Part shown: positions 11,889-30,775 of the stretch, one piece after another
How the letters are laid out: every line of letters starts with the position of its first letter
Numbering within the stretch: the first letter of the stretch is position 1
From: a virus
Lineage: Duplodnaviria; Caudoviricetes
Direction: 5' to 3' (one strand)
Length of the DNA: 30,776 nt
IMG/VR virus record: IMGVR_UViG_3300025018_000410
Span: 1-30,776 of that record
Notes under the pieces: model-generated
Databases searched by the model: none
What the model saw: only the letters and a program-made list of their open reading frames with translations
What the model was told of the DNA's origin: nothing
Made by a program: the position numbers and the translations under genes

Positions 11889-12293
11889 TCATTTCCAATA
11901 AATCACGATGCCCTTGAAGGGCTGGCTGTGGGTATTTTCAAACCACGCGGTCAGTTCCGCCCATGTGGCGAATCCGTCCGCGCGGGCAAAGTCATCGAGC
12001 GCGCTGGGGTGCGTGATTGTCGCTCCGGCAAAGTGCTCATTTCCCTCGATCCAGAAATGGCGCTTCCCGATCGTGATGCTCTTGACCGCTACGATCGTTG
12101 CCTCGCGCAGCCCGCGCTGCTTGCCGCGGTAGGGCGCTCCGGTCCAGCAGCGCAGACTGATCAGGTCGCCCGGTGCGGGCCTGCGCTTAGGCGTCGGGCG
12201 CACCGTCTGCAGCTTCCTGCCCTGCTCCACCAGCTCCGCAAATTGCGGCTTGAATAGGCGCACGAATCGTCGCGTTTTTTGGGTTGGCTTCAT
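11889..12293 (-). CDS. ASCH-domain protein, 134 aa
   Basis: FKPQF...GRKLQTVR...PGD...FARADGF signature. Confidence 0.8.
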   Translation of the reverse strand: MKPTQKTRRFVRLFKPQFAELVEQGRKLQTVRPTPKRRPAPGDLISLRCWTGAPYRGKQRGLREATIVAVKSITIGKRHFWIEGNEHFAGATITHPSALDDFARADGFATWAELTAWFENTHSQPFKGIVIYWK

Positions 12294-12297
12294 GGTG

Positions 12298-12516
12298 TCA
12301 TTTGCTGGTTCGGTCGGCATACCACTGGCCGACCCGGCGGCGGATGTTCAGGGCGTCGGGCTGCTCCTTGTCCATCAATATATCGGTCGCTTGTTCCAGT
12401 GCGGCCATCAATTGGATCTCGTTGCTGTAGGCGTCGCTCGGCACCTCGATTCTTATCCACATCGTGGACCTGCTTTCCTGCGCGGCTTCCGGCTTGGTTG
12501 GGTCGTTGGGTATCAT
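12298..12516 (-). CDS. Hypothetical protein, 72 aa (first cassette)
   Basis: Fills the gap between attC1 and the ASCH gene; its last codons cross the inferred cassette edge G|TTCGG at 12308. Confidence 0.6.
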   Translation of the reverse strand: MIPNDPTKPEAAQESRSTMWIRIEVPSDAYSNEIQLMAALEQATDILMDKEQPDALNIRRRVGQWYADRTSK

Positions 12517-12535
12517 GCTGGGTTAAAATTTAAGG

Positions 12536-12589
12536 GCCGAACTTCCGCTCGAGCCGACGCCTCCGGCGCGGCTCAGCTCGCTGTTCTAC
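12536..12589 (+). repeat. attC-like site 1 (54 bp)
   Basis: R'' GCCGAAC - TTCC - L'' GCT(C)GAGC - CG(A)CGCC TCC GGCGCG - L' GCTCAGC - TCGCT - R' GTTCTAC; two extrahelical bases; the first spacer is 4 nt rather than the usual 5. Confidence 0.8.
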
Positions 12590-12774
12590 TTGCTCCGGGC
12601 CTTCTTGGTTTTCGGGAGCGACAAAAGAGCAAGCCACGCCTCGCGCGTGATCGGCGCGTCGTCCGCCCCGCTCTCGCGCTTGGCCAGCGTTACGCGATGC
12701 ACGCCAAGCCGAGCGGCGACGCTCTCTTGCGTGCCGCGCTTGGCGCGCTCGGCTTTGTATTTCTCGGGCGTCAT
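12586..12774 (-). CDS. XRE-family HTH protein, 62 aa
   Basis: GTQESVAARLGVHRVTLAKRESG; ATGA overlap with the MTase gene; the TAG stop lies within R' of attC1. Confidence 0.8.
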   Translation of the reverse strand: MTPEKYKAERAKRGTQESVAARLGVHRVTLAKRESGADDAPITREAWLALLSLPKTKKARSK

Positions 12775-13325
12775 GCTGCCGCCCCCCATTGTTCCGCCAT
12801 CGCAGCGGCGATGCCCGCGAAAGTCCTCGAGCGTTCTTTCCAGCGGTCGGGGCCGGGCGGCATCCGATGCACGCGGGCCTCGCGGCCCGCGACGATGTTT
12901 GTCGGCGTGAGCGGCGGGAGATTCTTGAGCCAGAGGCAGGTCGCCTTGGTTTCGCCGTGGCCGAATTGCCACGGTTGAATGATTTGGTCCGGCTTGCGGA
13001 TTCGGCTCGATATGATGCTCACAGGATTTTCTAGCGCGATGCGCGGGATCGGCGCGGCCAGTAGCGCCCGCACGAAGTCGAGTGCCTCGCGTTGCTCGGT
13101 CTGTTTGAGCGCGAACCACCGCGCCCCACTGACTGCCAGGTGCGTGCATGGCGGGTGCGCGATCAGCATGTCCCAGCCCCAGTCCAGCACATCGCGAACG
13201 TCGCCCTGGTAGTGATGCCCTGGTATTTCCGTTTCGAGCAGGTCGCAGCTCATCGCTTGATGACCACGAGCAGAGAACGCTTCGCGCACCGCGCCGGAGT
13301 ATTCGCAGGCTACGAGGATTTTCAT
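12771..13325 (-). CDS. Short phage-type DNA (cytosine-5) methyltransferase-like protein, 184 aa
   Basis: MKILVACEYSG (motif I variant), SCD, GDV, DMLIAHPPC (motif IV), ALENP (motif VI), KATCLW, RSRTF.GIA.AMAEQW. Confidence 0.8.
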   Translation of the reverse strand: MKILVACEYSGAVREAFSARGHQAMSCDLLETEIPGHHYQGDVRDVLDWGWDMLIAHPPCTHLAVSGARWFALKQTEQREALDFVRALLAAPIPRIALENPVSIISSRIRKPDQIIQPWQFGHGETKATCLWLKNLPPLTPTNIVAGREARVHRMPPGPDRWKERSRTFAGIAAAMAEQWGAAA

Positions 13326-13645
13326 GCGCTCCATCCTTCGGCGTCGCGCTGGGCGCAGGTTTTCACGCCTTGCACGGGCACCTCGATGTCTCCCTCGATG
13401 TCGTGCAGCCACACGCGGCCGTTGTAGCTCACATATCCGATCTTCGCGCCGGTCTCATCGTGGAGGATTACGTCGCGCCGGATTTCGGACGAGCCGCGCC
13501 CGTTGTTGTAGATTTCGCGGACTACGCCGCATTGCTCAGGGGTGATGAGCTGGAGCATGCTGCCTTTCTTGAGGTAGAGGTCGGGCCACCACTTGGCGGA
13601 AGCGGCGGGCGATTGCGGAGCAGAGACTAGAGTTAGTGTTTTCAT
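13322..13645 (-). CDS. Hypothetical protein, 107 aa
   Basis: MKTLTLVSAP...IGYVSYNGRVW; ATG lies just after a candidate promoter; ATGA-coupled to the MTase gene. Confidence 0.7.
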   Translation of the reverse strand: MKTLTLVSAPQSPAASAKWWPDLYLKKGSMLQLITPEQCGVVREIYNNGRGSSEIRRDVILHDETGAKIGYVSYNGRVWLHDIEGDIEVPVQGVKTCAQRDAEGWSA

Positions 13646-13654
13646 TGCGTCATC

Positions 13655-13683
13655 ACGTTGTAGCGTTACACTACATGAGTCAA
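13655..13683 (-). promoter_or_regulatory. Cassette-internal sigma70-like promoter with palindromic operator
   Basis: -35 TTGACT (13683-13678); -10 candidates CAACGT (17-nt spacer) or TACAAC (15-nt); TGTAG-N7-CTACA inverted repeat (13659-13675) overlaps the spacer and -10. Confidence 0.55.
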
Positions 13684-13724
13684 GCGCGTTTCGGATAGAA
13701 TTTCGTGAGCGTTTTCCAAGCAAA

Positions 13725-13798
13725 GTAGAACCAGCGATTAGAGCCAACGTCCCTACGCGCTACGCGCTCCGGGCCGTGGCTCACTCGCGCTGTTGGGT
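13725..13798 (+). repeat. attC-like site 2 (74 bp)
   Basis: R'' GTAGAAC - CAGCG - L'' ATTAGAGC - CA(A)CG...CGTG - L' GCTCACT - CGCGCT - R' GTTGGGT. Confidence 0.85.
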
Positions 13799-14118
13799 GC
13801 CGGCTGGCGCACGGTCTCGGCTTCCATCTGCCGGCGAAGCTGTCGGGCACAGTGCCAGAGCGTATCGCACACAGCCTCGATTCGCTCGCGATGGCTCGGG
13901 TTTGCTGCGGCTGGCGCAGTCTTCATGTAGCCCGTGGCCTTGTCCTCCCATTCAGAGGCTAAAGCTTCGGCGCTCGACACCGGCACCCAACCAGTCGCCC
14001 CAGCATCAACGCGCCTCACTGGCAGTAATTCGGTGCCGCCTTCTACGCGCTGGACTTGCTGGAGTTGGTGCGTTTCTCCGCTTCTTGTGTCGGTTTGATA
14101 TATTGGATCAGAGTGCAT
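13753..14118 (-). CDS. Hypothetical protein, 121 aa, starting inside attC3 and ending inside attC2
   Basis: AAAGGA RBS-like motif upstream of ATG 14118; open through L''/R'' of attC3, the cassette body, and R'/L' of attC2. Confidence 0.6.
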   Translation of the reverse strand: MHSDPIYQTDTRSGETHQLQQVQRVEGGTELLPVRRVDAGATGWVPVSSAEALASEWEDKATGYMKTAPAAANPSHRERIEAVCDTLWHCARQLRRQMEAETVRQPAPNSASEPRPGARSA

Positions 14119-14171
14119 CGTTTGGTTTTCCTTTCTGCGCTCGTGGCGCGTTGCTGATCTTGTCGTTAGCC
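13985..14171 (+). repeat. attC-like site 3 (187 bp, very long terminal loop)
   Basis: R'' ACCCAAC - CAGTC - L'' GCCCCAGC - ATCAACGCGCC ... about 129 nt ... GGCGCGTT - L' GCTGATC - TTGTC - R' GTTAGCC. Confidence 0.75.
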
Positions 14172-14384
14172 AAGAACGGCCTTGACGTAGCCTTGCCGCG
14201 TGAGCGCGAAGGACACGAAGCCGGGGTTCGTCGTGATGACGGTCGCGCAGCCTTCGGAGTCGAACTCGACCTTGCCGTCTTCGCCGCGTTTCAGATGAGC
14301 GTTACCGCCCATCGGGAGCATTTTGAGAGTCGAGTCGGTCGCGTTTGCAGCGGACTCGGCGTTTGAGTGGAGGATTACTTTCAT
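14166..14384 (-). CDS. Hypothetical protein, 72 aa (cassette gene)
   Basis: MKVILHSN...GYVKAVLG; the TAA stop lies within R' of attC3. Confidence 0.7.
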   Translation of the reverse strand: MKVILHSNAESAANATDSTLKMLPMGGNAHLKRGEDGKVEFDSEGCATVITTNPGFVSFALTRQGYVKAVLG

Positions 14385-14449
14385 GGTTTTCGGAGGTTGA
14401 AATTTCGGAGTCCTAACCACGGGCCACAGAGAACGCCCGTTAGCGTCAT
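14381..14449 (-). CDS. 22-aa coupling mini-ORF reading out of attC4
   Basis: MTLTGVLCGPWLGLRNFNLRKP; ATGA overlaps at both ends. Confidence 0.5.
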   Translation of the reverse strand: MTLTGVLCGPWLGLRNFNLRKP

Positions 14450-14500
14450 AGGTTTGGTTTAGCGTCAGGGGTCGGGCGTCTCTGATTCCGACCGTTCGTC
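14411..14500 (+). repeat. attC-like site 4 (90 bp)
   Basis: R'' TCCTAAC - CACGG - L'' GCCACAGA - GA(A)CGCCCG ... CGGGCGTC - L' TCTGATT - CCGACC - R' GTTCGTC; the loop holds TTAGCGTCA twice. Confidence 0.8.
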
Positions 14501-14511
14501 TTGGTTTTCAT
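14446..14511 (-). CDS. 21-aa coupling mini-ORF reading into attC4
   Basis: MKTKTNGRNQRRPTPDAKPNL; ATGA overlaps at both ends. Confidence 0.5.
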   Translation of the reverse strand: MKTKTNGRNQRRPTPDAKPNL

Positions 14512-14741
14512 TTTCCTTGAAAGTCTTCCGGTCCCATCGGGGTGACCTCGGGTTGTGCCGCCAACTCGCGCGCGAGGTCGAGTCCCGTTGGGCAGTAAGC
14601 TGCCGTTTTTTCGTAAAACGCACGATAGCATTGCTTGCCTCCGTCGCGGTGGGCCGCGATTTCCCTGAGCAAGCGCATGCACGCGGGGGGCACGCGGTCC
14701 TCGCCGTCAATCTTGATGAGTCTGATTTTTATCCCGCTCAT
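14508..14741 (-). CDS. Hypothetical protein, 77 aa
   Basis: ATGA-coupled member of the early operon. Confidence 0.65.
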   Translation of the reverse strand: MSGIKIRLIKIDGEDRVPPACMRLLREIAAHRDGGKQCYRAFYEKTAAYCPTGLDLARELAAQPEVTPMGPEDFQGK

Positions 14742-14965
14742 GTCTTCACCTCCGTGGCTCCGGGGCTGAAAATCGCCGCCACGCTCGCCTCGGTAATCGG
14801 CTCCTGCCCGCCCCGCTTCAGGTATTCGGTGCGCAGGCGCAGGATGGTTTTCAGTTCCATGCCCAGCAGCCTGAAATCGTCCGCCACCAGCTGCGTGTAA
14901 AGCTCGGCGGTGTCGACCACGAAGGTCACGCCATTCACGTCCTTCAGGATGGTGGTGTATTTCAT
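14738..14965 (-). CDS. Hypothetical protein, 75 aa
   Basis: ATGA-coupled on both sides; high GC3. Confidence 0.7.
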   Translation of the reverse strand: MKYTTILKDVNGVTFVVDTAELYTQLVADDFRLLGMELKTILRLRTEYLKRGGQEPITEASVAAIFSPGATEVKT

Positions 14966-15129
14966 GCCTCGGCCTCCGGTAGTCCCAGCGCGCGGCGGAT
15001 CTCGCGGCGCTGGGCCTTCACGCGCTCGATCAAGCGGTCGTCCTTCCAGCCTGCGCGCAGCATCTGGTGGTAGGTCTCGGCCAGCAGCTGCTCCGTCGCT
15101 GCCAGCAGGGGTGTATGGTCCTCGTTCAT
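14962..15129 (-). CDS. Hypothetical protein, 55 aa
   Basis: Manual translation MNEDHTPLLAATEQLLAETYHQMLRAGWKDDRLIERVKAQRREIRRALGLPEAEA; fills the gap and has an ATGA overlap. Confidence 0.65.
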   Translation of the reverse strand: MNEDHTPLLAATEQLLAETYHQMLRAGWKDDRLIERVKAQRREIRRALGLPEAEA

Positions 15130-15147
15130 CGGCGGGGTTTGTGGGTT

Positions 15148-15615
15148 TTACCAGCCCATCTCTCGGATGGTGTTGACGAGGATGGTGGCCAGTTGTCGAT
15201 CGATCTTGAATCGCTCCGTGTTGATCTCCAGCGACCGACGGATGTCGCCTCCGTTTTTCATGCGCTCTGTGGCGGCTTTCCAGTCCATGAACATCTCCAT
15301 CACGTCAAACAGGCTCATGCCCTCGATGCCGTTCGGATAGTGCTCCGGGTGGTGCGAGTTGTTGGCGTAGTGATGGTCGAGCGCGGGTTTCAGTTCGTCC
15401 AGTGCCGCTTTGTATTCGGCACTGCCGTAGGCCATGCTCTTGAGCTTTAGCGTGCAGGTATCAAAGGTCGTCTTCTCCGGCTCCAGCAGCTTGCTGGCAT
15501 CGTGCACTAATCCGCGCATAGACAAATTTCCTATGCAATGGCCTAGTAATTCGTTCACGCGTATAGCGTGCGCCTCCGTGTCGGCGCGCGAGTCGTATTT
15601 GTCGTTTGTGCTCAT
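15148..15615 (-). CDS. HD-like metal-dependent phosphohydrolase (DUF5662-like), 155 aa
   Basis: H...HDASKL...HHY..NSHHPEHY...EM.MDW pattern. Confidence 0.75.
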   Translation of the reverse strand: MSTNDKYDSRADTEAHAIRVNELLGHCIGNLSMRGLVHDASKLLEPEKTTFDTCTLKLKSMAYGSAEYKAALDELKPALDHHYANNSHHPEHYPNGIEGMSLFDVMEMFMDWKAATERMKNGGDIRRSLEINTERFKIDRQLATILVNTIREMGW

Positions 15616-21107: not shown

Positions 21108-22277
21108 TCAAATCTCTTTCTCTGGCAGGCGCTGCAGTGCCCGGTGGGCTCCCTCCAGCTGCGCGTGGGTATAGCCTTGGCTCACGCGCGCGTCCGCGTG
21201 CCCCACGATCGCCATCCGGTCCACGTCGCTCACGCCCGCCTCGTTCAGCCATGTCGACAAACTGTGCCGCAAGCTGTGGATGGAATAATCCGCCAACCTC
21301 CGTCCCTTGTGTTCGCCGTAGGGCTGGTCGATGCCGATGCGCGGCAGGATCTTCTGCCTGAAAATATCCGACAAACTCTTGCGCCCGGTCGGCGGCAGCG
21401 CGGCCAGCTTCGGCAGCAGTAGTCCCTGCTTGCCCGCGTGCCGCTGTAAATCGCTCCACAACTGCGGATGGATTGGCACCTCGTGCCAGTCGTTGGTCTT
21501 GCCCCGGTGCACCATCAGCGTCCGGCGCTGCGCATCGATGTGCTCCGCCCGCATCCGGGCCACCTCGTTGCGCCGCTGGCCGGTGTATCCGGCGATCTTG
21601 ATGAACAAGTGCCATTCCCGCGCGTGGGCCAGCGCCTCGCCCTTGCCCTTGGCTGCGGCCTCGGTCGCCTTGAGCATCGCCTGAAACTGTGCCCACGAGA
21701 ACGGCCTCCGCTGCTGGGCCTGCTTCCGGGCGTTCTTCACGCGCACCAGCGACCACGGATTCTCGTCCACCAGCCCCTGCGTATGAGCCTCGTCCCATTG
21801 CCGTCGCAGCGTGCTCAGATGGTGGTTCACGGTGGCAGCGGCCAGCGGCACCGCCTGCAGCCGGTCCCGCCATTCGGCGGCGAGCCTGCGGGTCACGCAG
21901 TTCAGCGGCTGGGCCTCGAGCTGCGGGTGCCCCTTGAGGAATCGATCGATTGCATCTTGGTAGCGCTCCCGCGTGCGGCTCAGTTTGAACTGTGCCCCGA
22001 TTGCGGCGCGGCGGCGGTGCAGGAAAGCGCCCACCGTCTCGACCTCGGTTGCCTCGATCCCGCCGATCACCTGAATCTCGCGCAGCAGCCTGCGGGCCGT
22101 GGCCTCGTTGAGCCTCCGCTGCTTGGCGGATTGGCTCGCCTTCTCGTAGGCCAGTGCCAGCTGCAATGCGCTTGCCTCATCCTCGAGCCCGGTGCTGAAT
22201 TGTTTCCTCCCGCCATCCGGCATGGTAAAGCCCGCCCACCACTTCTTGCTCCCCGGTCGCTGGTAAACGTAGGCCAT
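21108..22277 (-). CDS. int: Phage tyrosine integrase, 389 aa
   Basis: N-terminal arm-binding-like domain; catalytic residues in TGQR, RGKT, HSLRH, VGH and GYTH. Confidence 0.95.
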   Translation of the reverse strand: MAYVYQRPGSKKWWAGFTMPDGGRKQFSTGLEDEASALQLALAYEKASQSAKQRRLNEATARRLLREIQVIGGIEATEVETVGAFLHRRRAAIGAQFKLSRTRERYQDAIDRFLKGHPQLEAQPLNCVTRRLAAEWRDRLQAVPLAAATVNHHLSTLRRQWDEAHTQGLVDENPWSLVRVKNARKQAQQRRPFSWAQFQAMLKATEAAAKGKGEALAHAREWHLFIKIAGYTGQRRNEVARMRAEHIDAQRRTLMVHRGKTNDWHEVPIHPQLWSDLQRHAGKQGLLLPKLAALPPTGRKSLSDIFRQKILPRIGIDQPYGEHKGRRLADYSIHSLRHSLSTWLNEAGVSDVDRMAIVGHADARVSQGYTHAQLEGAHRALQRLPEKEI

Positions 22278-22474: not shown

Positions 22475-25400
22475 TTAGCGCAGGGAGCGGCGGAGTTCGC
22501 GGTCGGCGCGCTGGTTGATCTCGTCGTCGGTGAGGCGGTCGCGCTGGGTGATTTCCTGCTCGAGTCGTTCGTTGCGGGGCTGGTAGCGGGCGCGGCTGGC
22601 CTCGGTGCGGTTGGCTCCGGGGAAGAGGGCGCGCTCGGCTCCGCGTAGTTCGCTCATGCGGTAGTAGTAGCGGTAGGCTTGCTGCAGCTGCTTGCGCTCG
22701 ACCGGGCTCAGGCTCTCGACGAATTCGCGGCGGAGGTCGTTTTTCTTGGCGAGCCCGGAGAGCGGGTCTTGCGCCCGGATGCTGGATTGGAAGCGCTCGG
22801 CGGTATAGCCAAGGTCCAGAAGGCGGTTGTAGAAGCGGATGGCGTTGGGCACGTCGCCCCGGTAGATGGAGCGGCGGAAGTTGCGCAGCACCTGCTGGTC
22901 GGGGGCGTCGTAGCTCATGTCGCGGGATTGACCGGTCTTCTGGTGGATGAAGTCGTCGGCCTTCTCGCGGATACCGTAGTAGGACCATTGCTCGGGGTCG
23001 CGGCGGCGCACCTGCAGGATGATCTGGCTGGCCCAATCGCCGAGGTCGCGGCCCGAGAGGTAGTCCTTGTCGGTGGCGCGGCGGATGATTTCGGCGACCT
23101 TGTCGTCGGTCATCTGCTGCAGCACGGCCCACTTGACTTCGCTGGCCGGGATGGTTCGGGTGTCGGTGATGTCGGGGAAGGTGCTCTGTTTAAAAGCGGC
23201 GGCGACAAAGGCGCGGGGGACCGGGCCAACTTTCCAGAGGTTGTTGACGAAGTCGCGGGGGAAGCGGCGGAGGAATTCCTGCGTGGCGGTGCCGACCGTG
23301 GTGCGGCCTCGGGCCACGTCGAGCGCGAGGCGGGCTCCTTCCTGTCCACTGAACCAGCGGCCAATATCGCCGAGTGCGGTCTGCGCGTAGATGACCTTGG
23401 TTTTGCCTTGGTCGTCCACGCCGATGATGATGTGGAAGCGGCGCTTGTCTTCCTCGCTGAGCGTGTCCTCGAGTTCGCGCCGCCAGCCGGTGCCGTTCCA
23501 GAGGGCGGTGACGAGGTAGGGGATGGCGAGGCGCAGGAGCACGCCAGTGGCGGCGCGAGTGGCAAAGGTAGTCGCGGCCTTGCCCACGGATTTTGCGGCC
23601 TCGGCTTGGCTGACCTCCTTGGCGGCGACCATGTCGTGCAGGTTGCGCAGGAGGTTGGCGTGGTATCTGAAGTTGATTTCAATCCAGCTGTAAAACGGGA
23701 CGAGGTAGCGGCGCAGCTCGTTGCCTGCCACGCTGATGTTGTGGTAATCACCAAAGGTCGCCAGCGAGATTTCGGCGGCGGCTTGGAGTTGCTGCTGCTC
23801 GGTGGCTCCGGCTTGGGCCTGCTCGAGTTCGGTCTTGGCCTTGGCGAGCAGTTCGCGGTCGGCCTGTGCGGCGGTCTCGACCTGTTGGCGCGGGGCACCG
23901 TGCAGCCGGTAGCGCATGCGCTCGCGGTCGGCGATCGATTGCTCGAGGCGGCGGATCTCGGCCTGCAGGCGGGTGACGTGGGCCGGGGGCTGGGTGCGGA
24001 TGGCCTCGATGTCGCGCCAGTAGGCTCCGGCGTAAACCGGGCGGGCTCCGGCGCGCATGCGTTCCATGTCGGCCTTGAACTTGGCAAATCTGAAGGTGGC
24101 CTCGCGCAGCCGGGAAACGTCGAGGGTGCTGCGGTTGCCGCCGATAAAGAGCGTGCTGGCGCGGCGGGCGAGCTGGCGCGTCCACTTCTGCTTGGTGCTC
24201 TGGAGGGCTTCAAACTGGCGGAGAGCGGAGAGGTCGCCGATTTCGTTGGCGGTGATGGTGTCGAGCACGCCCAGCCGGAAGGCGGCGCGCACGTCGTCGG
24301 TGCCCTTGCCGTCCTCGATGAATTGGCGCACTTCGCTGGCGGCGGTGCTCAGGTAGGAGTAAACCTTGGGATCGGCGGACCAGAGCTTCTCAAGGTCGGC
24401 CATCGTGTTGTTGTATTCGTATCTGAAATAATTCCACGGCGCGAAGAGGATGTTGCGCTTCCAGCCGTTCTGGTAGGCGAGGAAGGGGGCGCTCAGGAAG
24501 TTTTCGCTGCGGGTGCTGTCGCGGCGCAAGATACCGTTGAGGGCTTCGGCTACGGTCTCGGGCACGACCCATACCTCGCGTTCCCCGGCGGCGAGGGCTT
24601 CGCGGATATCCTCGGGGCGGATGCGGATGCCTTGCTGGTGCAGTTGCTTGAGCTGTTCCTGCAACGGGGCATCGCTGAGGGCTGCGCCGAGGTGGCGCGC
24701 GAGGGTGTCGCGGTCGATCGTCAGCTCGGGGTGCAGCGGCATCTTGTCGTCGGGATAAAACAGCGCGTAGCCCCGGTCCTTCCATTGGGTATGGAAGGCT
24801 TCGCGCCAGCCGACCGCGCGGCCATATTTCTTGGCGAGGTCCTTGGCGGCAGCCCGCACGTCCTGCATCTCGTCGTAGGGCTTCCAGTAGTCGTTGGCCA
24901 CGTCGGCGCGCAGGTTGTGGGAGCCCACCGCGACATGGTGGTAATACATGGCCTTGGCGTAGTCGCTCTCGATCGGGCGGGTGCTGCCGACCGGCTTCTG
25001 CAGGTAGCCCCGGAAATCCTCGGCGGTATCCATGCGCACGCGTTCGAGGGCGTTGGCCAGCTGCTTGCCGTCTTTTTCGAGCACGACGTGGGGGAAATAG
25101 AACGGGTTGCGCAGCTCGTCGGGCAGCGTGAAATCGCGCGCTTTCAAATCGTCGGCGATGGCGGCGACGGTATTCTGGTGCTGCTGCAAAGCGCGCAGGA
25201 TGAGTTCGCGGTGCGGGCTGGCGGCGAGCTTGGTCTTGAGGTCGGTGAGGCGCGCGTCGACCTCGGCGGGATTGACTCCGCCGGGCAGCATGATCGGGTT
25301 GCCTTGGTTGTCGCTCAGGTTTTCGGCGCGCCATTTGAGGTCGAGGTAAAGCGCGAGGTTTTGGAACAGGCCGTAGGGCTCGCGGTCGACTTGGCTGCGC

Positions 25401-28400
25401 AGGCTGGCGATTTCATCGGCGAGGGATTGGGGCACGGTCTTCTGCTGGGCGCGGAGCTTGCGGCGGCGGGCCTGCAGCTGGCCCAGCCGGTCGTATGCCT
25501 TGGCGTCAAATTTGCCCACGGCAAACAGCGGGCCGATGATGTCGCTTACTTGGTCGCTGGCTTCCTTCCAGACGCGCGGGGTGCCGCGCGACATCATCTT
25601 GTAGCCGAGGCGCAGCCGGGTGAATTGCTGGGCCTTGTCGTCGGCAAAGGCGGGCAGCTCGGGGATGGCTCCGCGCACGCCCTGCAGGCTGCGTTTGACT
25701 AGGTCGATCTTGCGCTCGAGCCAGCCGGGCGGGTTGGTGGTGTGGCCCTCGACCTCGTCGTAAATGTGGGCGCGGTTCTTGTATTCGTCCTGCGGGGCGG
25801 GACCGGGATCTTCGTCTGGGCCGGGCAGTTCGTCGACCGTGGGGGGCTCGGTCGGCGGGGGCGGGATGAGTCCCTGCTCGCGCCATTTTTCGCGCAGGGC
25901 GGCGAGTTGCTGGCGCAGGGCGGCGGCTTGGGCGGGTGAGCCGGTGGCGGCTTCCTCGGCGTGGCGGATCTTGGCGAGCATGTCGCCCTCGGCATCCTGC
26001 CGGGCGGCGATGGCCTCGGGGCTGGCGGTCGGGGTGATGGGCAGGTCGCCCGGTCGGATGGTGAGGGGCTCCCCGGCGGCAAGCTGGGGCTGCTCCTTGC
26101 GCCAGCCGTCAAATTCGCTGTCGAGGGTGGCGCGCACTTCGGCGCGCTGGCCGAGGTAGTGGCGAAAGGCGCGGCGGCTGGCCGGGTTGCCCTCGAGTTC
26201 GCCGATGCGGCGGTTCAGTTCGCTCAGCTCGGCGTAGAGCGCGTCCTTGCGGTCTACGAGGTCGCCTGCGGGCTTTCGGGCGCTCCGGCGAGATACGGGG
26301 CGAGTTGCTCGCGCATCTCCTGCGGCCACTCGCTTTCCGGGCGCGTCAGGAGTAGCTGCCGCTTGATCGGGTCTAAGGTAATTGATCCCATCTCCGCCAT
26401 CGTGTTGATCGATGAGAGGCGCATTTGCCGCTTTGATAGCAGCGGCACCTGCGGTGTGGGCTGGGAGGTTGATTCCGACGAGTTCATGGCGGGCGGTGCT
26501 GTTTTTCTTTCCGGCGTTTTCTAGCCTGACAATGGCAAAATGGTTCAGTGAGTCAACGATGTTGCCGAGATTCCATTCGTCCTGCGGCAGTCCGTTGGTG
26601 CCGAGGCCGATCGTCTTTTCGGCGAGCTGCGGGCTGTCGATGTGCCACGCGCTGTCGGTATAAAGGACGGCGTTCCCGGCGGCGGCGCTGCGCTGCAGCA
26701 GCTCGCCGGTTTGCAGGTAAAGGCCGAGGGGCACGCGTCCGCCGTCGTATCCGCTGGTGAGGTAGTAGGGCGGGTCGGCCACGGTGAGCACGTTGTCGCC
26801 CTTGGTGGCGGCTTGGTCGTAGGCGCTGCCCTGCTTGACCTCGACGGCGATGTTGCGGCGGCGCAGCTCGGCCATGCCCTTGGCGGCATCGGCGGCATCG
26901 CGCAGGGCGATCGCCTTGATCTTGTCGACGGTGGCGTCGGCGGTCTTTTTGCCTTCCTCGTTCACGGCGCGGCCTCGGGCATTGATGGCGGCGTCGGCCA
27001 GCAGGCCGACCATGGCCTGCAGCTCCGGGTCGGTGTTGGTGGATTCCTCGAGCTTGTTGAGGCGCGCGGCCACGGCGGTGCCGCTGGTGGTGTTGTCGAG
27101 GTTGGCGATCTCGGTGACCTGCTCGAGCAGCGATTGCACGGCGGGTGATTCCATGAGCTGGGGCACGCGGTCGGCGGCGCGGTGCAGCAGGGCAATCTTG
27201 GCGGCGCGGCGGGGCTCGTATTCCCATACCTGCAGCTGCTTGGTGTTGGGGTAGTGCGTCAGGGCGAGGTATGCGCCCCAAAAACCGCCCCCGCCGAAGT
27301 AATCCACCACGGTGTCGATCTTGGCGCGTTGCTCCGGGGTGCTGGTCTGCTCGATGAGTGCGCCCACGTCGACCGCCATCTGGTATTTGCCGCCCTGAAA
27401 TGCGGGCATGATGTCGATCCACTGCTTGATGCGGGCCTCGGCCCCGCGCTTGAGGGTGGGCTCCACCAGCTTGGCGTCGAGGCGTTCGTAGGTGGGCGCG
27501 GTTTGCGGGTCGGCCCCGGCTGGCTGCTGGGTGGGCGCGGGTGCGGCTTGCTCGAGGGCACTGCCGGGGTTGATCAGCGCGTTGGCCAGTTCCTGCTGCT
27601 GGGTGGTGCGCAGCTCGCGGCGCAGCATGTCGATGCGGGCCATGAGGTCGGCCCCCCGTTGCTCGATATCCTCCTGCGGTTCGTTGCTTTCCTTGAGCGC
27701 CTCGACTTGGTCCTGCGCGGTCTGGATCTCCTGCTCGATGTCGGCACTGGTGCGTTCCTCGCGAGCAAAGCGGATATCGGGATTCTCCGGGTCAAAGCTG
27801 CCGCGGTTCTCGGTGGCGTGCTTTACCTGATTGGAGTCAAAGATGGCGTAGGATGTTGCTGCAGGTCCGCTGGAGCCGATGCCGTCGTCGACATTATTGA
27901 TAATCAAACCGTCGTGGCCAGCAGCTTTGGCCTGTGCGACAAGTTTGGTCAGGCGGGTGGCTTCACCGACGTCGCCTTCAAAGTCGACCACCAATGGGTT
28001 CTCAATCTTCAGATATGCGGGCACCACGCTGCCTGCTTCCAATTCGTTGCCATCTTCGTCTTCATAGATGCTCTCGCCATATTCTCTTGGCAGGGTATAT
28101 TCGGCGGCGAGGTCTTCTGAATCCGAGAACCACGCGGTTTCCCTTACCTCCATGGCGTGGCGGGGGCTGATGTAGTTTACTTTTTTGCGGGTCGTGCCAT
28201 GGTAAACCACGAGCGGTTGGCCCTGTTCGTCCACGACCTTGCTGTTGCCAAACCAGCGGCGGAAGGCCGGGTTGTCGGTCTGCTGGCCCTTGGCGAAATC
28301 CTGCCGGGCGGCGGATACGGGGGCTCCCAGCGGGGCATATTGCGTTTTTTGGTCCAGAAATTGGCGAAAATCGATGCTGTAGCGCTTGGTGCGGGTGAAG

Positions 28401-30775
28401 ACGGCGCGCAGCAGGTCGAGGGCTTCCTCGAGCCAAGTGCGGAATTCGTGGGCGAGCTGGCGCAGCACGCTGGGCGGGCGGGCGATGGTGCTCTCGCGGC
28501 GGCGTGCCCAGCGGTCGTTTTCCTCGGCCATGCGCTCGCTCCAGTATTCCTTCCAGTCGGTGCGGGTGCCTGCGCGCAGCTTGATCCGGCGCTGGCGCAT
28601 GGTGGCGAGCCAGCCCTTGGGGTCGGCGAGGTCGGCCTGCCAGCGGTCCTGCAGGTCGGCCTGCGTGTCGGCCTCGAGGCTGTCGAGCCACGCGTGGGCG
28701 GTCTCGTGGAGCACGTCGCGGCGGGTGCGCTCGGGCATGAGGCCGTTGCGATCGGCGCGCACGTTGTTCTGCAGAAACCAGAGGATGCGGCGCTTGGCCA
28801 GATGGGCGGCTTGCTCGGTGCCGGTCAGGGGCACGTTGGGGCCGACGACGCTGCGCAGCAGCTGCGGGTCGCCGACGAGCACGCGGTAGCGGGCCAGCAG
28901 GCCGGGGGCGATGCGGCGCAGGCGGGCTTCAAAGTCATCGAGGGTGCCGGGGTCGGCGGCTTGCGGGGTGCCGCGCGCAAACAGCGGCTGGCCGTCGAGC
29001 ACGGCGGTCTTCATCTCCGCCGGGATCTCGAGCACATGCTGTTGGGTGGTGCGGGTGCGGTTGCTGAGAATGCCCACCACCAGCCGGTCGACGGTGGCAG
29101 CGGCGCTGCGGTTGCCCAGCCTGCGCTCTTGGCGCACGGCGTTCATGTAGCTTTGGGGTCGGCCATCAATACCTTCGTCCATGGCCCCGCGTATGCGCGC
29201 GGCGCTTTCTTGGATCTGCGAGAGGCCGGGGGTGTCGCCATCGGCGTCGGCTTCGCTCACCTCGCTGTTGATGATTTCATCGAGGGCGTTGCGGTGGTCT
29301 TGGTCGGTGAGGTTTTCGCGGCTGACTCCGGCCTCGGCCTGTTGCACCTTGCTGCCGTATTTCTTGGCGAGTTCGTTGGCGATGTTGGGCAGCAGCTTGT
29401 CGTAAAAGGTGCGCATGCCCTGCCCGCCCACGCGCAGGTCGTCGCCCTTGAAGACGCCCGACTGGCCGGGCTGGGTGATTTCGTTGCGGATGCGCTCGGC
29501 CAGTTCCTTGCCGATGAAGTCGTCGAGGTCTGCCGGGGCGATGTTGCGGCCTTGGTCGGTGTTGAGGTTGATGGGCTCCCCGCCCTTGAGGGCCATCACG
29601 TCGTAGTTGCCGCTGTGCAGGCGGCGGGCGCTGATGGCGTCGACCTGCTTGCTCAGGTCGTAGCGCTCGGCCTGCTGCTGGCCGGTGGTCCACGCGATGC
29701 GGTCAAAGCCCTTTTCTGCGGCCCACCTGATCATGCGCTTGAGGGCGAGGCGCGGCCACGAGTTCTTCTTGAACGGGGCATCCGGCACGCGACCATCCAT
29801 GTGGTTGCCCAAGTCCGCGCCCGCATCGCTGGCGTCCTCGACAAAGGCGTTGATGGCCTGCTGTTCGGTCAGGGTGCCGTCGTAGTCGATCTCGACGACC
29901 GGCTCGCCACTGCCGTCGATCACGGTCCAGTTGCCTTCCTCCATGTCGTAGTCGTTGGCGATGGTGGCGTCGACGCGCACCATGCGGAAGCCATCGCTCA
30001 GCTTGGCGTTGCCGCTCTTGCCGTAGCCGTGCTTGGCTCCCTTCTGGTGCCAGTCGCTCTGGATCTCCTCGATGAAAAGCACGCGCGCGCCGTCCGGGGC
30101 GGTGCGCTCGTCAAAGCGCACATGGGCGATGATGTTGGGCCGGTCAAAGTGTTGTGACTGGAAATTGCCCCGGCCCTCTTTTTCCGCGAGGTATTGCTCG
30201 CGGATGGCGTCGCGTTCTACGAGGGGGGTGTCCTCAAAGCGTTTGCCGGTCTTTTCCAGCAGCCACCCGTCAAAGGGCAGGGTGGTTTGTTTATAGGGCA
30301 GCGTCAGGAGTAGCTCGCGGTAGTTTTCTCCGCCCGGCAGGGTGTATTGGGCAAACTTGGTTTCATGGCTATAATCGTAACGGACGCGGCTGCGGGCTTG
30401 CTGGCCCTTCTCGTTGGGCAGCACGGTCTCGGAAACCTGCACGCGGTTTTCCTGCACGAAGTCCTGCACGTCCTGCTTGGTGACGCTGGCCTTGCCCTGC
30501 AGGAATTTGTCGAGGTCGATCCACTCGGCGTATTCCTTGGTGCCCTTGGTCTTGGCGAGGTGGGCGCGCAGCTGGTCGGGCGTGCCTTTGTTCTGCCATG
30601 TGGCGAGCGATTCGAGGATGTTGTCGTGGAAGCCCAGCGGCGAGGTCTCGGTGCGGGCAAAGGCGACGTCATCCGGGCCGGTCTCGTCGCGCGGTTGGGC
30701 GACGATGCGCTCGCCGCGCACGCTGCGCAGCACGGCGTTTTGCAGGTCGTTGACTGATTCGAAGGGAAAGCCCGC
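22475..30775 (-). CDS. Giant virion/ejection polyvalent protein (>2,766 aa; N-terminus beyond the window)
   Basis: Frame stays open to the window end. Domains: EEIQSDW module (about 28980-30650), HExxH peptidase LHETAH (28694-28708), ART-PolyVal-type ADP-ribosyltransferase (27770-28280; FRRWFGNSKVVD...VVYHGT...WFS...GHDGLII...FDSNQVK), Dam-like MTase (about 26490-27410; FQGGK, DYFGGGG, DPPY), long helical C-terminus. Confidence 0.88.
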   Translation of the reverse strand, partial: AGFPFESVNDLQNAVLRSVRGERIVAQPRDETGPDDVAFARTETSPLGFHDNILESLATWQNKGTPDQLRAHLAKTKGTKEYAEWIDLDKFLQGKASVTKQDVQDFVQENRVQVSETVLPNEKGQQARSRVRYDYSHETKFAQYTLPGGENYRELLLTLPYKQTTLPFDGWLLEKTGKRFEDTPLVERDAIREQYLAEKEGRGNFQSQHFDRPNIIAHVRFDERTAPDGARVLFIEEIQSDWHQKGAKHGYGKSGNAKLSDGFRMVRVDATIANDYDMEEGNWTVIDGSGEPVVEIDYDGTLTEQQAINAFVEDASDAGADLGNHMDGRVPDAPFKKNSWPRLALKRMIRWAAEKGFDRIAWTTGQQQAERYDLSKQVDAISARRLHSGNYDVMALKGGEPINLNTDQGRNIAPADLDDFIGKELAERIRNEITQPGQSGVFKGDDLRVGGQGMRTFYDKLLPNIANELAKKYGSKVQQAEAGVSRENLTDQDHRNALDEIINSEVSEADADGDTPGLSQIQESAARIRGAMDEGIDGRPQSYMNAVRQERRLGNRSAAATVDRLVVGILSNRTRTTQQHVLEIPAEMKTAVLDGQPLFARGTPQAADPGTLDDFEARLRRIAPGLLARYRVLVGDPQLLRSVVGPNVPLTGTEQAAHLAKRRILWFLQNNVRADRNGLMPERTRRDVLHETAHAWLDSLEADTQADLQDRWQADLADPKGWLATMRQRRIKLRAGTRTDWKEYWSERMAEENDRWARRRESTIARPPSVLRQLAHEFRTWLEEALDLLRAVFTRTKRYSIDFRQFLDQKTQYAPLGAPVSAARQDFAKGQQTDNPAFRRWFGNSKVVDEQGQPLVVYHGTTRKKVNYISPRHAMEVRETAWFSDSEDLAAEYTLPREYGESIYEDEDGNELEAGSVVPAYLKIENPLVVDFEGDVGEATRLTKLVAQAKAAGHDGLIINNVDDGIGSSGPAATSYAIFDSNQVKHATENRGSFDPENPDIRFAREERTSADIEQEIQTAQDQVEALKESNEPQEDIEQRGADLMARIDMLRRELRTTQQQELANALINPGSALEQAAPAPTQQPAGADPQTAPTYERLDAKLVEPTLKRGAEARIKQWIDIMPAFQGGKYQMAVDVGALIEQTSTPEQRAKIDTVVDYFGGGGFWGAYLALTHYPNTKQLQVWEYEPRRAAKIALLHRAADRVPQLMESPAVQSLLEQVTEIANLDNTTSGTAVAARLNKLEESTNTDPELQAMVGLLADAAINARGRAVNEEGKKTADATVDKIKAIALRDAADAAKGMAELRRRNIAVEVKQGSAYDQAATKGDNVLTVADPPYYLTSGYDGGRVPLGLYLQTGELLQRSAAAGNAVLYTDSAWHIDSPQLAEKTIGLGTNGLPQDEWNLGNIVDSLNHFAIVRLENAGKKNSTARHELVGINLPAHTAGAAAIKAANAPLIDQHDGGDGINYLRPDQAAATPDAPGKRVAAGDARATRPVSRRSARKPAGDLVDRKDALYAELSELNRRIGELEGNPASRRAFRHYLGQRAEVRATLDSEFDGWRKEQPQLAAGEPLTIRPGDLPITPTASPEAIAARQDAEGDMLAKIRHAEEAATGSPAQAAALRQQLAALREKWREQGLIPPPPTEPPTVDELPGPDEDPGPAPQDEYKNRAHIYDEVEGHTTNPPGWLERKIDLVKRSLQGVRGAIPELPAFADDKAQQFTRLRLGYKMMSRGTPRVWKEASDQVSDIIGPLFAVGKFDAKAYDRLGQLQARRRKLRAQQKTVPQSLADEIASLRSQVDREPYGLFQNLALYLDLKWRAENLSDNQGNPIMLPGGVNPAEVDARLTDLKTKLAASPHRELILRALQQHQNTVAAIADDLKARDFTLPDELRNPFYFPHVVLEKDGKQLANALERVRMDTAEDFRGYLQKPVGSTRPIESDYAKAMYYHHVAVGSHNLRADVANDYWKPYDEMQDVRAAAKDLAKKYGRAVGWREAFHTQWKDRGYALFYPDDKMPLHPELTIDRDTLARHLGAALSDAPLQEQLKQLHQQGIRIRPEDIREALAAGEREVWVVPETVAEALNGILRRDSTRSENFLSAPFLAYQNGWKRNILFAPWNYFRYEYNNTMADLEKLWSADPKVYSYLSTAASEVRQFIEDGKGTDDVRAAFRLGVLDTITANEIGDLSALRQFEALQSTKQKWTRQLARRASTLFIGGNRSTLDVSRLREATFRFAKFKADMERMRAGARPVYAGAYWRDIEAIRTQPPAHVTRLQAEIRRLEQSIADRERMRYRLHGAPRQQVETAAQADRELLAKAKTELEQAQAGATEQQQLQAAAEISLATFGDYHNISVAGNELRRYLVPFYSWIEINFRYHANLLRNLHDMVAAKEVSQAEAAKSVGKAATTFATRAATGVLLRLAIPYLVTALWNGTGWRRELEDTLSEEDKRRFHIIIGVDDQGKTKVIYAQTALGDIGRWFSGQEGARLALDVARGRTTVGTATQEFLRRFPRDFVNNLWKVGPVPRAFVAAAFKQSTFPDITDTRTIPASEVKWAVLQQMTDDKVAEIIRRATDKDYLSGRDLGDWASQIILQVRRRDPEQWSYYGIREKADDFIHQKTGQSRDMSYDAPDQQVLRNFRRSIYRGDVPNAIRFYNRLLDLGYTAERFQSSIRAQDPLSGLAKKNDLRREFVESLSPVERKQLQQAYRYYYRMSELRGAERALFPGANRTEASRARYQPRNERLEQEITQRDRLTDDEINQRADRELRRSLR
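26254..26487 (-). CDS. Candidate nested (overprinted) 77-aa gene inside the giant gene
   Basis: GC3 is about 78% in this frame versus about 51% in the host frame (hand count); upstream TTGACT-16-CATTGT promoter-like motif; start context identical to the gene at 3195. Confidence 0.5.
   Translation of the reverse strand: MNSSESTSQPTPQVPLLSKRQMRLSSINTMAEMGSITLDPIKRQLLLTRPESEWPQEMREQLAPYLAGAPESPQATS

Follow-up and report, generated by a model that had tools for sequence, protein, structure and literature searches.

Our analysis revealed that in the attC family of the phage contig studied here, reversed polarity is a general trait of the viral cassettes and lies above chance: the cassette gene is coded on the bottom strand, so that the attC hairpin leads the gene. 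As the best explanation of the whole, to which we assign a probability of about 0.7, a host integrase would shuffle these reversed cassettes, and the chain of overlapping mini-ORFs at one of the sites, attC4, would be a chance arrangement around a signal of the family. Reverse-polarity phage cassettes with a rule for the reading frame at the crossover appear to be real and undescribed in searchable papers; our search of titles and abstract openings found no paper on reversed phage cassettes in the searchable literature, by which subscription journals are mostly uncovered.

The attC array and its cassettes

The window, namely the whole stretch of 30,776 nucleotides that was analysed, is a 30.8-kb virus contig about 80% complete. 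A tyrosine integrase is coded at 21108-22277, and an HTH gene resembling a repressor lies on the plus strand. The minus strand has a long run made up of small genes, a replication initiator, a terminase small subunit and a capsid gene, with the array inside this run; the phage is temperate, and the attC cluster sits in its lytic operon. With four attC sites and no intI nearby, the window presents a CALIN. In fact no IntI was found in the contig, though the missing part of the phage may hold one, the best score with TIGR02249 being 35.5 bits against a cut-off of 265, and by the same figures the tyrosine integrase of the phage is rejected as an IntI. As judged from the attC family alone, the host probably belongs to the Verrucomicrobiota, since 40 among the first 80 genome loci listed for this family are titled as Verrucomicrobiota. 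At 22475-30733 there is a polyvalent protein of 2752 aa, with an ART-PolyVal domain at residues 835-980.

A two-armed attC motif was used to scan viral and genome collections, and several of its matches, being non-attC repeats, were removed; a covariance model was built from an alignment of 80 attC sites, none of them from the window. The arms of the sites covary, with 88.5% of the cells pairing against 72.6% in shuffles and 29-41% when slid, a figure to which the scanning motif contributed by itself fixing some of the pairs. With filters off, the model gave four matches only in the window, all on the plus strand: attC1 at 12536-12589 (54 nt, crossover after G12583, R' box 12583-12589, 25.5 bits), attC2 at 13725-13798 (74 nt, crossover after G13792, 34.3 bits), attC3 at 13985-14171 (187 nt, crossover after G14165, R' box 14165-14171, a partial match of 16.5 bits) and attC4 at 14411-14500 (90 nt, crossover after G14494, 48.2 bits, with an open 33-nt loop). 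The match of attC3 is partial because of its long loop, which holds a gene start. In the four sites the R''/R' cores (AAC...GTT) come with paired L boxes, and the extrahelical bases are those of the R'' side, as far as the partial match of attC3 goes. The R'' of attC2 is complementary to the R' of attC1 at 7/7 positions, that of attC3 to the R' of attC2 again at 7/7, and that of attC4 to the R' of attC3 at 5/7; the first bases of each cassette complement its own R'' at 7/7, 7/7 and 5/7 in the window, and at a mean of 6.6/7 in 145 viral cassettes.

That the plus strand is the top strand of these sites follows from three observations: the unpaired bases are on the R'' side, the inner arms of attC1 match the top strand of attC aadA7 (primer table of Qi et al. 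2023), and in three Verrucomicrobiota MAGs the model matches adjoin IntI in the canonical arrangement. Folding energies of the two strands do not discriminate between them. In a Spartobacteria MAG (L231, G005:C154:56079-57020) an IntI match lies beside a sense array, with one TAG inside the matched stretch. Moreover attC1 is short and has its inner arms in common with attC aadA7, unlike attC2-4, and the array therefore mixes attC families.

All cassette genes of the window are on the minus strand and reversed with regard to the usual polarity, just as the sequence-only reading had stated: the three cassettes between attC sites all show bottom-strand coding and A-rich skew, and none of them (0/3) has a top-strand gene ending at its own attC, as a canonical cassette has. 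On the backbone side of the outermost crossover lies a 77-aa phage gene (14508-14741, minus strand) with four homologues; the one in L220 stands without attC, in ATGA overlap with a long gene. Behind attC4 follows a 72-aa cassette gene (14166-14384, minus), whose stop is inside the R' of attC3 and whose homologues are P0002 and P0003; in L218 and L219 its homologues have no attC. It is preceded by an A/C-rich leader of 26 nt (14385-14410, minus) with predicted independent initiation, a leader whose class recurs in 60 homologous sites and which has a close look-alike without loop ATG in L053.

The next gene, of 121 aa (13753-14118, minus), which the sequence-only reading overlooked, has its start within the attC3 loop, runs into attC2 in the frame that reads the AAC of the crossover as Asn (the Asn frame) and stops in the attC2 loop. 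It has eight homologues with a common core that ends at an invariant Asn, and the heads and tails are unrelated in 9/9 aligned predicted proteins; variable ends of this kind would be expected from the reading of both ends out of attC sites that change. A three-gene cassette (12584-13792, minus) contains the genes 13322-13645, 12771-13325 and 12586-12774, with ATGA overlaps between the three; the second is DNA methyltransferase-like (phrog_757, E 2e-72) and the third an HTH gene (HTH_3). Before 13645, at 13650-13700 on the minus strand, a -35-like hexamer and a short palindrome can be seen. The ending of this cassette in an HTH gene suggests a promoter of its own, possibly autoregulated, but the apparent promoter is unsupported, because a sigma-70 promoter scan of 12200-15200 gave no site. 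Behind attC1 there is another 72-aa gene (12298-12516, minus), and a GTT site at 12308 may mark the end of the founder cassette; it matches the R'' of attC1 at 6/7, but three such matches occur within 1.1 kb.

Rfam gave no match in 12000-15500; in a search of cultured phages the match was confined to the methyltransferase gene among the 30 listed of 39 records, and the same search with attC4 gave nothing meaningful. For the two flanking proteins Pfam and PHROGs gave no match and the ESM Atlas no usable one, and locus searches with single proteins returned one weak match in one case and zero in another.

Swapping of cassettes at the G|TT crossover is shown by environmental contigs alone, at low depth. 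Among the environmental runs listed as holding the contig, none is of RNA. In run X1, possibly the source sample, an 846-nt contig of depth 4.7 (main form 34.7) matches the window to 13794 and resumes at G14165, with about 780 nt of other sequence filling the slot of the 373-nt cassette, and in run X4 a different attC arm precedes G14165. In a second X1 variant (885 nt, depth 6.2 vs 29.9) base 12587, which lies within the attC1 R' and 3 nt from the crossover, is replaced by 825 other letters, and this is no clean cassette insertion. A search for a relative with an empty site gave none among the loci examined: L221, which represents the same phage, breaks off at 12586, and the other loci are without attC. 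Homologues of the 72-aa and 77-aa genes elsewhere are ordinary operon genes without attC, and the cargo therefore looks like phage genes.

Polarity and reading frame across viral and bacterial sites

Within this attC family the longest ORF is on the bottom strand in 113/145 viral cassettes, the others being 22 top-strand cassettes and 10 ties; in bacterial genomes 136/160 cassettes have it on the top strand. With related sites counted separately, the contrast has a Fisher p of 7e-35; counted by locus, it remains as 31/35 viral loci with bottom-strand against 35/41 genomic loci with top-strand coding, and the p values overstate independence, since related phages remain in both sets. These counts are based on longest-ORF calls and on a model search of 65/85 viral and 78/130 genome loci, where non-attC matches, duplicates, short-flank loci and end-cut matches were left out; AT skew was not applied to the bacterial cassettes, for it fails to separate their strands.

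Among the contigs classed as viral, L030 and L051 have arrays of sense polarity, in 5/5 and 2/2 cassettes respectively, and the attC sites of L030 are near-identical, as in a host integron. L037, L047, L048, L069 and L071 have arrays of 6-10 reversed cassettes with long A-rich leaders and an early stop in the Asn frame, and several of this group have ATGA in or directly behind the L' arm.

The reading frame at the crossover also differs between the two sets. The translation counts cover 162 viral and 180 genomic sites, after removal of seven viral loci of apparent sense type or unclear polarity (L009, L019, L024, L030, L051, L060 and L081), of sites whose cores were not clean (9 viral, 31 genomic) and of those with less than 90 nt of flank. 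Where an upstream gene runs across the crossover, AAC is read as Asn in 89/102 viral cases (86/97 dereplicated); for genomic shadow ORFs the figure is 34/65. In the order Asn frame and the two other frames, a stop within the site is found in 151, 88 and 94 of 152 viral sites and in 115, 87 and 86 of 167 genomic ones. When the entry frame is shifted, in-frame fusions rise from 4 to 16-18 of 159. In the sense array of TJE1 (L236:244-280, 1018-1046), orf1 and orf2 also enter attC with AAC as Asn and stop inside.

As for the starts, cassette genes are of two kinds, those beginning in the loop and those whose start follows an A/C-rich leader behind R''; the loop-start genes in the frame of mini-ORF 2, described below, are the commonest class (37/70). 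The Asn-frame stop overlaps the gene's own ATG within the site in 27/152 cases, where the other frames give 6 and 16 and 300 loop shuffles a mean of 6.9 (maximum 13). Direct hand-over from the real upstream genes is found at 18/159 sites vs 9 and 13 with the entry frame shifted. Direct coupling, as predicted from these overlaps, is a real but minority feature, modestly above the shifted-frame control.

The sequence-only reading had also drawn attention to stops falling exactly inside R' boxes. Those at 12586-12588 and 14166-14168 do lie there, but they are not special, because TAA in the R' box is a consensus feature found in 66/162 viral and 116/180 bacterial sites, and R' stops were discarded as a distinguishing mark.

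The mini-ORF chain at attC4

The chain reported by the sequence-only reading is indeed present: on the minus strand, the frames 14508-14741, 14446-14511, 14381-14449 and 14166-14384 overlap by ATGA three times, and the middle stop/start hand-over is within the open 33-nt loop of attC4. Mini-ORF 1 (14446-14511, 21 aa) starts on the stop of the 77-aa gene, crosses the crossover with AAC as Asn and stops in the loop, where mini-ORF 2 (14381-14449, 22 aa) starts, reads the second arm and the leader and stops on the start of the 72-aa gene. The three ATGA are likely to represent one family-wide signal flanked by two chance overlaps. In the gene list of the analysis 20/26 window genes begin with ATGA, so that the exit overlap needs only a matching frame; this exit half recurs in 2.2% of 20,000 shuffles of loop and leader. 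A frame of three codons at 12290-12301 (minus), with ATGA at both ends, bridges 12298-12516 and 11889-12293, which indicates that such chains arise easily.

It is possible, though doubtful, that mini-ORF 1 matters by itself, as the backbone entry frame, either as the stub of a gene into which the first cassette was inserted or as a working analogue of ORF-11 that would feed ribosomes into whichever cassette is first; this would be compatible with chance assembly of the chain and host-driven shuffling. It lies outside the outermost crossover and in the Asn frame, the homologue of the 77-aa gene in L220 is ATGA-coupled to its neighbour, and the outer flanks, when rejoined in silico, give an 11-codon frame with ATGA at both ends. 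More generally for the entry step, 15 of the 26 homologous genes that stop just before the site do so in the frame that places an overlapping start in the Asn frame, but in either of the remaining frames the site itself imposes a stop. Nevertheless ATGA is found in only 4/13 of the TGA stops in the suitable entry frame, about the base rate, by which entry mini-ORFs are rejected as a rule. No empty-site relative that would reveal the original junction was found among the loci examined, the left boundary at 12308 is a candidate only, and the six codons of the frame are also readable as an ordinary A/C-rich leader.

The stronger proposal, originally made from the sequence, is that the two mini-ORFs form a selected relay which carries ribosomes through the attC4 hairpin and is needed for the 72-aa gene. 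The unbroken chain with its hand-over in an open loop speaks for it, as do the precedents set by short ORFs within attC and by the ORF-11 of attI1, and the predicted partial pairing of the 72-aa start (mean unpaired probability 0.37). However, a survey of homologous sites against controls gave overlaps no more frequent than chance, an outcome that the sequence-only reading had itself named as refuting: full mini-ORF chains with ATG starts occur in 0/159 sites vs 1.75 (about 1%) in eight frame scrambles, those with ATG or GTG in 4/159 vs 6.1, and 137/159 junctions have no strict chain. In the attC4 class, where the gene start is behind R'', the strict two-step relay is found in 0/60 sites (null 0.67) and the loose one in 5/60 (null 3.1). 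Two enrichments are borderline, that of the loose relay with GTG (8/60, null 4.7, p 0.057) and that of a loop ATGA followed by second-arm read-through (5/68 vs 2.6, p 0.054), and these count in favour of the relay. In the window itself attC1-3, that is 3/4 sites, are unchained, which the sequence-only reading did not mention, and only attC4 is chained; moreover the 72-aa gene has its own leader, with a look-alike in L053 that lacks the loop ATG.

The Shine-Dalgarno (SD) pairing gives a mixed picture. ATGA overlaps join 11/25 neighbouring pairs in the phage gene list, and in 10/11 of these true overlaps the SD pairing, as computed with an anti-SD motif, is at least as strong as -4.2 kcal/mol, whereas the overlaps of the chain give -3.3 (mini-ORF 1, a weak SD-like pairing), +0.7 and +0.1 kcal/mol, like uncoupled genes; the exit overlap is thus without SD. 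In favour of the relay it should be said that SD is not always needed for reinitiation and that the loop hand-overs of homologous sites are also mostly without it (median -2.45). On balance we regard a selected relay as unlikely. Reverse polarity, mobility and translation signals within attC stand for these phage cassettes; the mini-ORF relay as an adaptation, which the sequence-only reading had envisaged, is unsupported, and so is the idea that the cassettes plug into a coupled operon without polarity.

It is very improbable that a frameshift has divided a single loop-start gene into mini-ORF 2 and the 72-aa gene, as might be supposed from the loop-start class in that frame being the commonest (37/70): three database and two metagenome homologues all begin with Met-Lys-Val, two of them with no attC nearby, and no indel variant is among the variants listed for that stretch, so that the shared N-terminus largely refutes this possibility. 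Finally, passive capture of part of a host integron, with antisense shadows as the minus-strand ORFs, is hardly credible as the origin of the array in spite of the host integrons formed by the same attC family and the few viral contigs with sense arrays (L030, L051), as it is refuted by the conservation of the minus-strand proteins, one of them a methyltransferase, and opposed by bottom-strand coding with A-rich skew in 3/3 window cassettes.

Proposed mechanism, known systems and biological meaning

Taken as a mechanism, the preferred explanation, shuffling by a host integrase with a chance chain at attC4, would run as follows. A host IntI would found the array at a GTT site by an attG-type route and then shuffle it by attC x attC exchange. 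With the gene reversed, the hairpin would move together with its own gene as a 5' leader, and the 3' end of each gene would run into whichever attC comes next. Genes would cross with AAC as Asn, the foreign attC supplying a stop that prevents fusion of the shuffled genes, and each cassette would start its own gene from a loop ATG or from the A/C-rich leader behind R''; in about a fifth of the sites the stop and the loop ATG overlap, which would allow direct coupling there. Since the hairpin would be both the gene's own leader and the neighbour's stop, any cassette order would give unfused proteins with their own starts. The gene at attC4 has its start behind R'' and a leader to itself, so that this scheme can probably do without the mini-ORFs, and a chain of chance origin may still be used by ribosomes.

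Several known systems resemble parts of this arrangement. Phages have been described to carry CALINs, that is attC clusters without IntI, often with methyltransferase cargo, and 5/6 tested phage attC sites recombined with IntI1 (Qi et al. 2023, PMC9892861); the window is like these in having an attC cluster without IntI in a phage and methyltransferase cargo. The arrays of TJE1 and PH101 are described there as typical, and in TJE1, which we checked directly, the genes are on the top strand, unlike the bottom-strand genes of the window. Neither the reversed polarity nor the frame rule is mentioned in the main text or the first half of the supplement of that study, whose figures might bear on orientation.

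The sedentary integrons of Verrucomicrobiota and related groups share the attC family of the window, but there IntI adjoins the arrays, the genes are on the top strand (136/160) with the hairpin after the gene, whereas the hairpin of the window leads its gene, and there is no strong Asn-frame stop rule as in the viral sites. IntI is reported to insert cassettes at GWT sites outside integrons, in bacterial chromosomes (attG; bioRxiv 10.1101/2022.09.11.507474), and by analogy attG insertion is a likely route to the founding of the window array; it leaves the reversed genes of the phage cassettes unexplained.

With regard to translation, the sequence-only reading had taken it as established that attC hairpins lower expression unless they are translated. 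In the part of the literature consulted, the support for this is weaker: a review states that attC hairpins hinder translation and that short ORFs relieve the hindrance (PMC8876359), but when attC was deleted from 10 repressive cassettes, the expression downstream changed in a minority of them only (Carvalho 2024, PMC11511950). The short ORFs known from attI1 (ORF-11, ORF-17 and ORF-18) and from attC (Hanau-Bercot 2002 and Jacquier 2009, via PMC8876359) are, as cited in the review, like our mini-ORFs in crossing the crossover, in taking their stop from the inserted cassette and in being able to pass ribosomes on. According to the same source they belong to the top strand, are preceded by a canonical SD and have been tested experimentally, whereas the mini-ORFs of the window are on the bottom strand, have no strong SD and belong to a chain that is not conserved. 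Likewise, the ATGA overlaps in termination-reinitiation usually have an SD in the upstream gene, although it is not always needed (Huber et al. 2019, PMC6728339, as far as consulted); their -4 geometry is that of the 11/25 phage gene pairs, but the second and third overlaps of the chain are without SD, unlike those overlaps and unlike 10/11 of the phage's own.

The consequences for these phages may be considered from the point of view of genome evolution. Such an arrangement would explain the variable, attC-derived heads and tails on small phage proteins. Two of the cargo genes occur elsewhere as plain operon genes without attC, which bears on the genesis of cassettes, and any model of that genesis has to account for the reversed layout and for a reading frame that is fixed at the crossover. 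A mini-ORF relay would add little to this picture unless it were needed for expression. Whether the phages of Verrucomicrobiota-type hosts keep a whole mirror-image pool of cassettes, shuffled by the host integrase and with attC as a standard translational plug that offers a stop in the Asn frame, a start or leader to its own gene and in some cases a hand-over, direct or through mini-ORFs, seems to us about evenly balanced. Such a pool, if it exists, would be built from ordinary phage genes, silent in the host integron and expressed only in the phage operon. If phages do use the host integrase for their own accessory genes, integrons would serve the evolution of phages too, beyond bacterial defence and resistance.
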